The translations under genes and the position numbers were made by a program. The notes beneath the pieces are model-generated. The model did no database searches and was not told where the DNA came from. It saw only the letters and a list, made by a program, of their open reading frames with translations. DNA of 64,000 nucleotides from NCBI RefSeq assembly GCF_003334305.1, contig NZ_QOWS01000018.1, one strand, 5' to 3'. The stretch comes from Escherichia coli. GTDB taxonomy: Bacteria > Pseudomonadota > Gammaproteobacteria > Enterobacterales > Enterobacteriaceae. This document shows, in pieces, positions 57,607 through 58,943 of the stretch. Numbering within the stretch: position 1 is the stretch's first letter; the number at the start of each line of letters is the position of its first letter.

Positions 57607-57894
57607 CTAATTTCTCTTAAAGTCTCGGACTTGCATAAGATTTTTTGGTCTGGTATCGGCTCTGTTACCATTTCGATGGATAATTTGCTTGTTGGATTGA
57701 TAGCCATGATAAAGAAACCAGACAACATATTTCACGTAGAAAGTATATCGGCCTATATTAAATGTTTTGTTGCCGTAGTCGTCGGTGTTTATCGTGACTG
57801 ACTCTCCATCAGACCAGCACAGGGAATCACTGGATTCATCATAGATAAGGTGTTCTGCAAAATATCTTCTAACATCTTCATTCCAAGGTTTCAT
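57607..57894 (-). CDS. HNH endonuclease-like protein (95 aa)
   Basis: KYVVWFLYHGYQSNKQIIHRNGNRADTRPKNL matches the HNH_3-type pattern; ATGA overlap with upstream ORF. Confidence 0.65.
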   Translation of the reverse strand: MKPWNEDVRRYFAEHLIYDESSDSLCWSDGESVTINTDDYGNKTFNIGRYTFYVKYVVWFLYHGYQSNKQIIHRNGNRADTRPKNLMQVRDFKRN

Positions 57895-58106
57895 AAAACC
57901 TCCTCACCCCAATAACCTAATTCAATCTTGTGACGCTCAAACCATTCCGGTTTAACTGCTGTTTTCAGTACTTCATTTGGGCCAATGGCTTTAATGAAAA
58001 TATCTTTTGAGTTATGGATGTCACCGAATCCGTTTCCTTCAATCAGGAGGTCGGAGATGTAGCGAATCATTTTATCCGTGTGGTATTCAAAGGTAACGCA
58101 TAGCAT
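57891..58106 (-). CDS. Hypothetical protein (71 aa)
   Basis: Track ORF; coupled between the RHH-like and HNH genes. Confidence 0.5.
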   Translation of the reverse strand: MLCVTFEYHTDKMIRYISDLLIEGNGFGDIHNSKDIFIKAIGPNEVLKTAVKPEWFERHKIELGYWGEEVL

Positions 58107-58387
58107 TAAACCTCCAGAGACAGCTTGTGAATCTTAAGACTCAATAGACGGGCAATATCAATTTTAAAGCCGTTAAGTCCCTTCAAAGTATCTAAAGCGT
58201 CCTGAGTAATTCGGATGTGTTTACGACCTTTAGAGACTGGATATTTAAGTAAATCCGACTCAGTAACCTCTTTAGCAATTGCAAGCTGCATAACAGTCTG
58301 ATGAGGTAAGTTAGTAGCTCGTTTAATTCTGGCAAGCTCGTTAAAAGCTTCCTCTGAAATGCGGGTTAAAGTGTGTTTGTTTTTCAT
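58106..58387 (-). CDS. Ribbon-helix-helix-like small DNA-binding protein (93 aa)
   Basis: N-terminal TLTRISEEAFNELARIKRATNLPHQTVMQLAI resembles RHH (CopG/Arc) fold pattern. Confidence 0.5.
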   Translation of the reverse strand: MKNKHTLTRISEEAFNELARIKRATNLPHQTVMQLAIAKEVTESDLLKYPVSKGRKHIRITQDALDTLKGLNGFKIDIARLLSLKIHKLSLEV

Positions 58388-58388
58388 T

Positions 58389-58943
58389 TTAAAATTCCTC
58401 TGTAACTAAATACGGGTCAAATTCAAAGTCTGGTTCACTGGTTGTAAGGCTGATATTTCCAACTTCCGCATGATGATTAATTGTCTCAATAACTTTCATG
58501 CAAATAGTGGCTAAGTTAGCGCAATATTTATCACTTGGTAATTCGTAGCTAAGTCTGGTTGCTTGTCTTTGAAGATGGCTCGTCACTGTGCTTGAACTAA
58601 TCTCATCAAGACTTCGCAGTAAATAAAAAACCTTCCGGTGATAATTATCTCTTCCAAGACTGCGACAAGTACCGATAATTACATCTTCAATTCGTGGCGG
58701 TAATTGCTCGTAAGAATCAAAGCCCATCAAGAAAGTTTTTAAAGTATTCTCTTTTTCTTTGCGTGCTGGCATAAATCTGTCTCGTGGCGTAATGCTACGA
58801 ATGACCGCTTCAATGTTCTTACGTTCGGATTTGCTAAAGGTTGGGACTTCGTAGCTGGTGGGGGTGTCTGTGTGGCTGTAACCGTTGTGTCTGTTGCGTT
58901 CTCTTGATGCCTGAAGCATCGCTCTAAATTCTCTGTCGTTCAT
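58389..58943 (-). CDS. Hypothetical protein (184 aa), first gene of four-gene coupled operon
   Basis: Track ORF; AAGGA 8 nt before ATG; putative promoter TTGACA-17-TAGTAT upstream. Confidence 0.6.
   Translation of the reverse strand: MNDREFRAMLQASRERNRHNGYSHTDTPTSYEVPTFSKSERKNIEAVIRSITPRDRFMPARKEKENTLKTFLMGFDSYEQLPPRIEDVIIGTCRSLGRDNYHRKVFYLLRSLDEISSSTVTSHLQRQATRLSYELPSDKYCANLATICMKVIETINHHAEVGNISLTTSEPDFEFDPYLVTEEF

Follow-up and report, generated by a model that had tools for sequence, protein, structure and literature searches.

What kind of element carries a tightly packed operon of four small genes, only the last of which encodes a protein with a recognizable domain? The operon lies at positions 58943 to 57607 (minus strand) of a 64,000-nucleotide stretch of the Escherichia coli A7 chromosome (contig NZ_QOWS01000018.1), which we refer to as the window, and its open reading frames (ORFs) encode proteins of 184, 93, 71, and 95 amino acids (aa), the last being an HNH_3 protein that we name HNH95. 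The evidence, taken jointly, makes it reasonably probable that this is the control operon of a satellite-like island that is integrated by a serine recombinase and linked to Felix O1-like phages, with a slot holding cassettes that include the mobile HNH95 gene. In the proposed arrangement it would be the leftward control operon of an 11.9-kb large serine recombinase island, which is delimited by its junction sequences at 50670..62610 (an interval without strand) between wrbA and ymdF. The original prediction had placed the four genes in a phage or satellite setting, which is borne out by the Felix O1-like tail genes and DNA signals of the island, and had treated them as a conserved functional unit ending in a nuclease, which is not: the four genes are no fixed unit, and the HNH gene is an optional 277-bp add-on.

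Results

A conserved core followed by an exchangeable slot

Genes 184 and 93 are the conserved core of the island family, and gene 184 is its hallmark. The slot that follows them, between gene 93 and a conserved hairpin with a 107/118-aa gene behind it, was compared in 35 related loci (given L-numbers, such as L006 and L044; the counts take in the fetched loci and the window itself). At least six alternative arrangements were found: 71-HNH95 and HNH90-66 in 9 loci each, a gene for a 128-aa helix-turn-helix protein in 6, HNH90-76-69 in 3, 76-69 without an HNH gene in 2, and 71 alone in a single locus (L044). The arrangements assort freely with the two allele classes each of genes 184 and 93, and the idea that HNH95 co-converts with particular gene 93 alleles was rejected for that reason. 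Among complete genomes, 71-HNH95 is present at 95-100% nucleotide identity in 226, and approximately 41 others match the 71-like half only, at 60-80% identity; the copies of the latter that were examined carry a swapped HNH90 cassette. Nucleotide identity between islands is 94-100% across 58265-57467, compared with 58-98% per 100-nt bin in gene 184. The 71-aa protein is acidic (isoelectric point, pI, of 5.2), and the 71-like gene is semi-conserved, occurring with or without an HNH-like neighbor and being HNH-free in L044, L037, and L046. The operon would accordingly be built in layers, with 184 and 93 as the fixed core and a downstream slot that accepts interchangeable small cassettes.

HNH95 and its sister HNH90

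HNH95 (57894..57607, minus strand; pI 8.7) is a minimal HNH_3 protein, as the original prediction had proposed: residues 53-89 match Pfam HNH_3 (PF13392) with E = 2.6e-8, the protein matches PHROG 99 (1e-8), and five of six aligned relatives also match HNH_3. Its gene is a clean 277-bp insertion (57632-57908), exactly the stretch that is absent from L044 and L006, and the right breakpoint is common to both. The insertion displaced the stop codon of the 71-like gene, which acquired its last five codons (GEEVL) from it, and the last eight codons of HNH95 are pre-existing target-site sequence into which the reading frame runs. HNH95 is found in about 60% of island copies (226 of approximately 367-401 island-bearing E. 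coli genomes) and forms only 6 clusters at 90% identity, against 1083 for the 184-aa family. In the same island pairs, the synonymous divergence (dS) is 0.08-0.16 for HNH95 and 0.4-1.5 for gene 184. The low dS and the few clusters indicate that HNH95 is nearly clonal and much younger than its flanks. Like free-standing homing genes, it is an ORF-sized insert between conserved genes, patchily distributed and almost clonal. It has probably passed in recent times between islands that are divergent in other respects, much as a free-standing HNH gene of the homing type would.

With I-HmuI and the free-standing HNH_3 homing endonucleases, HNH95 shares the HNH_3 domain, the N-terminal sheet region, and a His...GN...NL motif. 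In the structure paper of I-HmuI, His75 is reportedly the general base, and Asp74 and Asn96 the metal ligands. When HNH95 is aligned with residues 1-88 of I-HmuI (the sequence of PDB 1U3E), H73 corresponds to His75, and the GN and NL motifs are common to both proteins. However, HNH95 has 95 residues rather than 174 and lacks the C-terminal DNA-binding domain of I-HmuI.

Several features of HNH95 and its sister sit uneasily with a homing endonuclease. Asp74 of I-HmuI aligns with an Ile; Asn96 has no clear counterpart, as HNH95 ends 9-10 residues past the NL motif, although its C-terminal Asn95 might act as a substitute metal ligand; and HNH95 has no domain beyond the minimal HNH_3 core and, in particular, none for DNA binding. 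In the sister allele HNH90 (41% identical), which was inserted separately on the opposite flank of the 71-like gene, Phe replaces the catalytic His in 11 of 11 full-length copies; these are otherwise intact, which fits a non-catalytic role better than it fits a decaying selfish gene. The ratio of nonsynonymous to synonymous divergence (dN/dS) of HNH95 is approximately 0.08, which suggests that the island retains it for some function. Together, purifying selection and the intact, His-less sister argue for some retained, maybe non-catalytic role. The nuclease assignment of the original prediction thus survives in part when it is followed to individual residues: the His is kept in all eight HNH95 copies examined, but not in HNH90, and the metal ligands are not clearly conserved. 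Sequence searches of the PDB with HNH95 and with the HNH alignment gave spurious matches only, and HNH95 has no close relative among sequenced phages.

What, then, might HNH95 do? The suggestion that it works in DNA packaging, as a terminase-associated nuclease comparable to gp74 of HK97 or the HNH protein of capsid-forming PICIs (cfPICIs), has a precedent in HNH proteins of about 100 aa that serve in this way in some cos phages and cfPICIs (SatelliteFinder paper, and general knowledge). We regard it as extremely improbable: neither the island nor its relatives encode a terminase, portal, or capsid, the matched domain is that of the HNH_3 family, to which the homing endonuclease I-HmuI belongs, HNH95 is optional, and it has no relative in Felix O1-like phages. 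HNH95 would be dispensable for the basic life cycle of the island, and would not be a packaging nuclease.

A different role is that of an interference effector formed by the 71-aa protein and HNH95, in which a nuclease with an acidic partner cuts or nicks the DNA of Felix O1-like phages, comparable to the action of NixI of PLE on ICP1. The link of the island to a virulent phage, the His retained in 8 of 8 HNH95 copies under purifying selection, and the fact that an HNH-like gene always adjoins a 71-like gene, in either order, are all in keeping with such an effector. The variable slots of known satellites, such as the P4 and PICI hotspots, often carry anti-phage cargo. Nevertheless, HNH95 is missing from approximately 40% of islands, the catalytic His is a Phe in the sister allele, the metal ligands show no clear conservation, PADLOC-DB v2 holds no match to any of the four operon proteins, and the 71-like gene persists without an HNH gene in three loci (L044, L037, and L046), so that we consider an effector unlikely. 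Still less credible is a toxin-antitoxin or abortive-infection pair consisting of a basic nuclease toxin and an acidic inhibitor. The opposite charges of HNH95 and the 71-aa protein (pI 8.7 and 5.2), the tight ATGA coupling of their genes, and the constant adjacency of the HNH-like gene and its 71-like partner would be expected of such a pair, but there is no match to a PADLOC or known toxin-antitoxin family, the sister cassette has the two genes in reverse order and its HNH protein lacks the catalytic His, and HNH95 is a truncated, minimal domain. We continue to treat HNH95 as a mobile occupant of the slot in the control operon of the island.

Architecture of the operon and its control region

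The four ORFs are one real polycistron, which has a sigma-70 promoter and is translationally coupled. Genes 1 to 3, all on the minus strand, occupy 58943..58389 (184 aa; from the ORF list), 58387..58106 (93 aa), and 58106..57891 (71 aa). Both these coordinates and the junctions, predicted to be overlaps or gaps of 1-4 nt, were verified in the sequence: 184 and 93 meet at TAA-A-ATG (1-nt gap), 93 and 71 at TAATG (1-nt overlap), and 71 and 95 at ATGA (4-nt overlap). Every start is preceded by a Shine-Dalgarno sequence, in gene order AAGGA, AGAGGAA, GGAGG, and GAGGAGG. Comparison with relatives gives a dN/dS of 0.06-0.25 across all four ORFs, indicative of purifying selection, and the NCBI annotation (PGAP) of the source genome, E. 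coli A7, includes all of them.

The promoter that had been proposed for the operon, TTGACA-17-TAGTAT, has a TG extension and spans 59022..58994 of the minus strand. In 11 related loci, its -35 hexamer does not vary and its -10 hexamer hardly does. The region holds no excess of promoter-like sites overall (22, with 17.7 expected), and for this reason the operon promoter rests on conservation and not on the promoter scan. Back to back with it stands a divergent promoter, TTAACA-18-TATAAT with a TG extension (59030..59059, plus strand), which was found by the scan and is conserved in the 11 loci. Within this conserved back-to-back region, GTTAA/TTAAC motifs are repeated on both sides of the operon promoter and look like operators.

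Downstream of HNH95, the transcript contains a conserved hairpin of 137 nt (57606..57470, minus strand), with a folding energy of -49.5 kcal/mol (z = -4.3) that none of 200 shuffled sequences equaled. The hairpin is 97-100% identical in sequence between islands, and it pairs in part with the Shine-Dalgarno region of the conserved 107/118-aa gene (57484..57128, minus strand). A promoter scan between HNH95 and this gene gave no strong match, and the gene is probably the fifth cistron on the operon transcript, reached through the hairpin. An inverted copy of the hairpin is present in L007 and L013.

On the other side of the operon promoter, a 58-aa hydrophobic ORF (MVNLPPELGSPDVWAGGG...; 59187..59363, plus strand) is read divergently from the near-consensus promoter at 59030-59059. 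It is 77-97% identical among the related loci compared, is an annotated gene in L006, and could encode a small membrane toxin or exclusion protein. Extra copies of the hairpin, with the same stems, lie directly upstream of this ORF in related islands; approximately 100 nt of its leader, the part with the hairpin copy, is deleted in the window and in L010. A third near-consensus sigma-70 promoter, TTGACA-17-CATAAT with a TG extension (57009-57037, minus strand), lies upstream of a 236-aa gene; in the leader of approximately 350 nt that follows it, a terminator-like hairpin (56999-56983) precedes an inverted repeat of 28 nt (56677-56768).

The core proteins

As the original prediction had stated, the 184-, 93-, and 71-aa proteins have no recognizable function: they fall into no family of Pfam, PHROG, NCBIfam, or PADLOC, and the sole trace is a weak similarity of the 93-aa protein to DndE (E = 0.006 in NCBIfam and 0.33 in Pfam). 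The AlphaFold2 (AF2) model of the 184-aa protein, with a confidence score (pLDDT) of 76.8, shows a helical protein, for which no relative with a known function was found. The only phage match of this protein is in Aeromonas phage 85AhydR10PP, where it is surrounded by hypothetical genes. Homologs at 26-30% identity are encoded in other islands, together with a large serine recombinase, a small resolvase, and a TMP_3 tape-measure gene; some of these islands additionally hold Dit, chaperone, and hub genes. Distant relatives are encoded in L021-L023, islands of larger size in which a large serine recombinase is joined by chaperone, tape-measure, Dit-like, Pam3_gp18-like, and E217_gp41-like genes; with these longer tail modules, the 184 family may cover a range of tail-gene content. 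The alignment of the distant 184-aa homologs is too divergent to be used in a search for further loci.

The 93-aa protein is basic (pI 10.0), is encoded in almost all loci that cover the slot, and has a dN/dS of 0.11-0.20. Like ribbon-helix-helix (RHH) regulators and DndE-like proteins, it is small and basic, has the order strand-helix-helix twice, and is encoded beside a repeat-flanked promoter. Its AF2 model is too poor (pLDDT 46) to serve as a query and contains two helix-helix units, with a short possible strand segment ahead of each. Unlike those proteins, it shows no significant profile or structure match, a test for an internal repeat was negative, and a PDB sequence search with the 93-aa alignment gave spurious matches only. 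The RHH-like label of the original prediction is thus compatible with the composition and helical pattern of the protein but unproven, and the 93-aa protein is possibly a DNA-binding regulator with two strand-helix-helix units.

Shared sequences with Felix O1-like phages

The tail genes of the island point to the Felix O1-like phages. Its tape-measure protein (722 aa; 53330..55498, minus strand; identified by phage homology, and by Pfam TMP_3 in relatives) is 29-32% identical to those of Felix O1-like phages. Its Dit-like protein (269 aa; 52385..53194, minus strand; identified by phage homology, and by Pfam Dit_like in relatives) is 73% identical to the product of the gene that follows the tape-measure gene in these phages, and the order of the two genes is conserved. 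A 519-nt patch of the Dit-like gene (52640-53158) has 94.8% nucleotide identity to phage vB_EcoM_H12, and matches 212 phage records, 191 of them at 90-99% identity (Felix O1-like). Felix O1-like phages (Ounavirinae) are virulent and do not lysogenize; a patch of approximately 95% identity shows that DNA was recently exchanged with them.

The second link is a non-coding array of GGTNNGG with an 8-nt period, ending in GTAGCCACGTTAAAAATC (61209..61308, plus strand; identified by phage matches), with a terminator-like hairpin behind it (61313-61334). Three similar arrays stand between genes in the replication-gene region of phage H12 (at 43.9, 44.05, and 45.3 kb). With the array as query, 112 phage records were matched, all Felix O1-like by name, and in phage garuso the array is annotated as a repeat_region beside the ligase gene. 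The array is present in most islands, and by its likeness to the arrays of Felix O1-like phages it is a candidate phage-dependent origin or promoter.

A mobile family at five chromosomal sites

The island belongs to a mobile family, which is present at no fewer than five positions in the chromosome. Its gene order recurs at wrbA, the start of tonB, the start of dinB, mdtG, and yecE/yecN, and at each site the large serine recombinase differs (about 28-34% identity between sites) and has att arms of its own. The islands insert at the first codons of host genes (wrbA, dinB, and tonB) and provide, at the recombinase end, a replacement upstream region and start codon, as seen at the junctions of the window (50663-50744 and 62611-62632), the ends of L006, and positions 1-130 and 11250-11330 of L007. 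In the window, the crossover core, GTGCTTT in the minus-strand reading (7 bp), is at 50663-50669 and 62611-62617. The island splits wrbA after about codon 7, leaving the native promoter and first codons, ATGGCTAAAGTTCTGGTGCTTT, at 62611-62632, and its other end (50663-50744) supplies a new start, with which WrbA begins MSVKARI and not MAKV. At tonB, the island separates the native upstream region from the tonB ATG. Integration at the start of tonB, wrbA, or dinB may alter the regulation of these genes. L006 and L007, of 11.3 kb each, were considered as excised circles; this was rejected, as both proved to be integrated, with their ends in dinB and tonB flanks.

In a set of 5426 complete E. coli genomes, the region is matched in 401 and the 184+93 core in 367 (approximately 7%), always in the chromosome. 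Carriers include O55:H7, the enterotoxigenic E. coli strain TW11681, and human bloodstream and urinary isolates, and relatives of the island are found in E. albertii, E. fergusonii, Shigella, Salmonella, and Citrobacter. Species-representative genomes added one extra locus only (E. albertii).

Other features of the island

The G+C content of the island (36-44%) is far lower than that of the chromosome to its left (roughly 50-57%). Its gene order begins with the large serine recombinase, the presumed integrase (50745..52388, plus strand; from the annotation), and continues with the Dit-like gene, the tape-measure gene, three small or medium genes of no recognized function, the operon, and the divergent promoter with the 58-aa ORF. 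Beyond that ORF lie approximately 1 kb of repeats, a Dam-type methylase, the non-coding array, and a small invertase-type serine recombinase. Searches of PHROG, PADLOC, NCBIfam, and Pfam with all island proteins gave only HNH, methylase, recombinase, tape-measure, and Dit families; replication, capsid, and terminase genes were recognized neither in the annotation nor in searches of PHROG, PADLOC, and NCBIfam. An Rfam scan of the island gave no meaningful match, and a CTTAACAGA motif is weakly enriched in it.

The methylase, an N6-adenine DNA methyltransferase (59972..60640, minus strand; annotation and profile searches), is variable right-arm cargo and is absent or replaced by other genes in other islands. 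In L014 (10152-10676) and L025 (11414-11938), a 174-aa protein annotated as an AP2/ERF-family transcription factor replaces the methylase or the invertase, which makes the right arm a second slot for variable cargo. The small serine recombinase of DNA-invertase type (61542..62093, minus strand; PHROG 125, 1.9e-57) is conserved in most relatives. Its gene is flanked by 21-nt inverted repeats that are 90% complementary (60854-60874 and 62421-62441), and the 1.5 kb that they enclose may undergo inversion, as the Hin segment does in Salmonella. A 69-nt element with an internal inverted repeat (CTACGTGAAT...ATTTACGTAG) is present twice, directly upstream of the Dit-like and tape-measure genes (53254-53322 and 55517-55585; 88% identical); related islands have kept it, and it is missing from the phage genome tested. 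Two 76-nt direct repeats (59484-59559 and 59579-59654; 91% identical, 95 nt apart), in the ORF-free stretch downstream of the 58-aa ORF, might be iterons or recombinase sites.

Discussion

An integrative island with an incomplete set of virion genes, which shares genes and cis-acting signals with a particular phage, has the features by which a satellite is recognized, and from these we infer satellite behavior. To judge from its sequence, the island family would most likely exploit or interfere with Felix O1-like phages in a satellite-like manner, without capsid or terminase genes of its own. Vibrio has known satellites, PLE and PICMI, whose phages are strictly virulent. The PLE of Vibrio cholerae is likewise a small chromosomal island with a large serine recombinase, a link to a virulent myovirus, no capsid or terminase genes, and a small nuclease gene, that of PLE being NixI. 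However, no PLE gene family or RepA-type initiator was detected in this island, its hosts are Escherichia and relatives and not Vibrio, and it has its own tape-measure and Dit-like genes and a phage-like non-coding array. With PICI, cfPICI, P4-like, and PICMI elements it has in common that it is integrative and about 10-15 kb in size, with a divergent-promoter control region and variable cargo slots; unlike them, it lacks a tyrosine integrase, AlpA, a primase-replicase, Sid/Psu/Delta, terS, and a capsid module. None of the core markers of the PLE, PICI, cfPICI, and P4-like families was found among the island proteins in PHROG, NCBIfam, or Pfam. In the SatelliteFinder paper, tail genes are forbidden components of the PICI and cfPICI models, and these models would therefore miss islands of this kind.

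How far does this support a satellite? A number of observations weigh against it. The Felix O1-like genome tested encodes no relative of any of the four operon proteins, and no phage record contains the operon. The predicted tonB-type attP (CCGAATAGCTACAATACAATGACCCTTGAATGAAGTCTATTCGG) has no exact match in metagenome and viral collections, in which 24 contigs carry the integrated junction, and neither an excised nor a packaged form of the island was seen in public assemblies. Many island copies are interrupted by insertion sequence (IS) elements, so some may be decaying. Furthermore, the part that the 184- and 93-aa proteins would play, binding DNA at the back-to-back promoter region to control it, is an inference.

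Could the island then be an inert prophage remnant, and the operon without present function? IS insertions, recombinase or tape-measure genes that are truncated in several copies, and the failure to find an excised form would be expected of a remnant. Against this, islands at the five sites agree in size (11-12 kb) and gene order and have a recombinase and att arms particular to each site, purifying selection acts on every gene tested, and the non-coding elements are conserved. The virulence of Felix O1-like phages means that prophage remnants of them are not expected, and yet the 95%-identical patch shows recent exchange. A remnant is, in our judgment, highly improbable. We return to the reading of a satellite-like island with a control operon, of which a more specific version is conceivable but tentative: that this is an undescribed Enterobacterales family of satellites, or of phage-parasitic defense islands, that targets virulent Felix O1-like myoviruses and has the 184/93 operon as its master control. 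In such a family, integration by large serine recombinases at the 5' ends of host genes, a lack of replicase and capsid genes, tape-measure and Dit-like tail-tip genes of its own, and a copy of a cis-acting phage array would go together, the array letting phage factors replicate or switch on the island. In the full-text literature we found no description of the island, and none of satellites of Felix O1-like phages in E. coli.

HNH95 itself is ordinary, an example of a minimal HNH_3 gene spreading within a mobile island. The interest lies in its setting, a common and apparently undescribed E. coli island family that shares tail genes and cis-acting sequences with virulent phages, and the 184-aa family is a handle for locating related islands across the Enterobacterales. 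Relatives of Felix O1 are widely used as therapy and biocontrol phages. If the islands do parasitize or block Felix O1-like phages, they would bear on the choice of phages for these uses, on the movement of tail genes between phages and chromosomes, and on the rewiring of host genes such as tonB, wrbA, and dinB.

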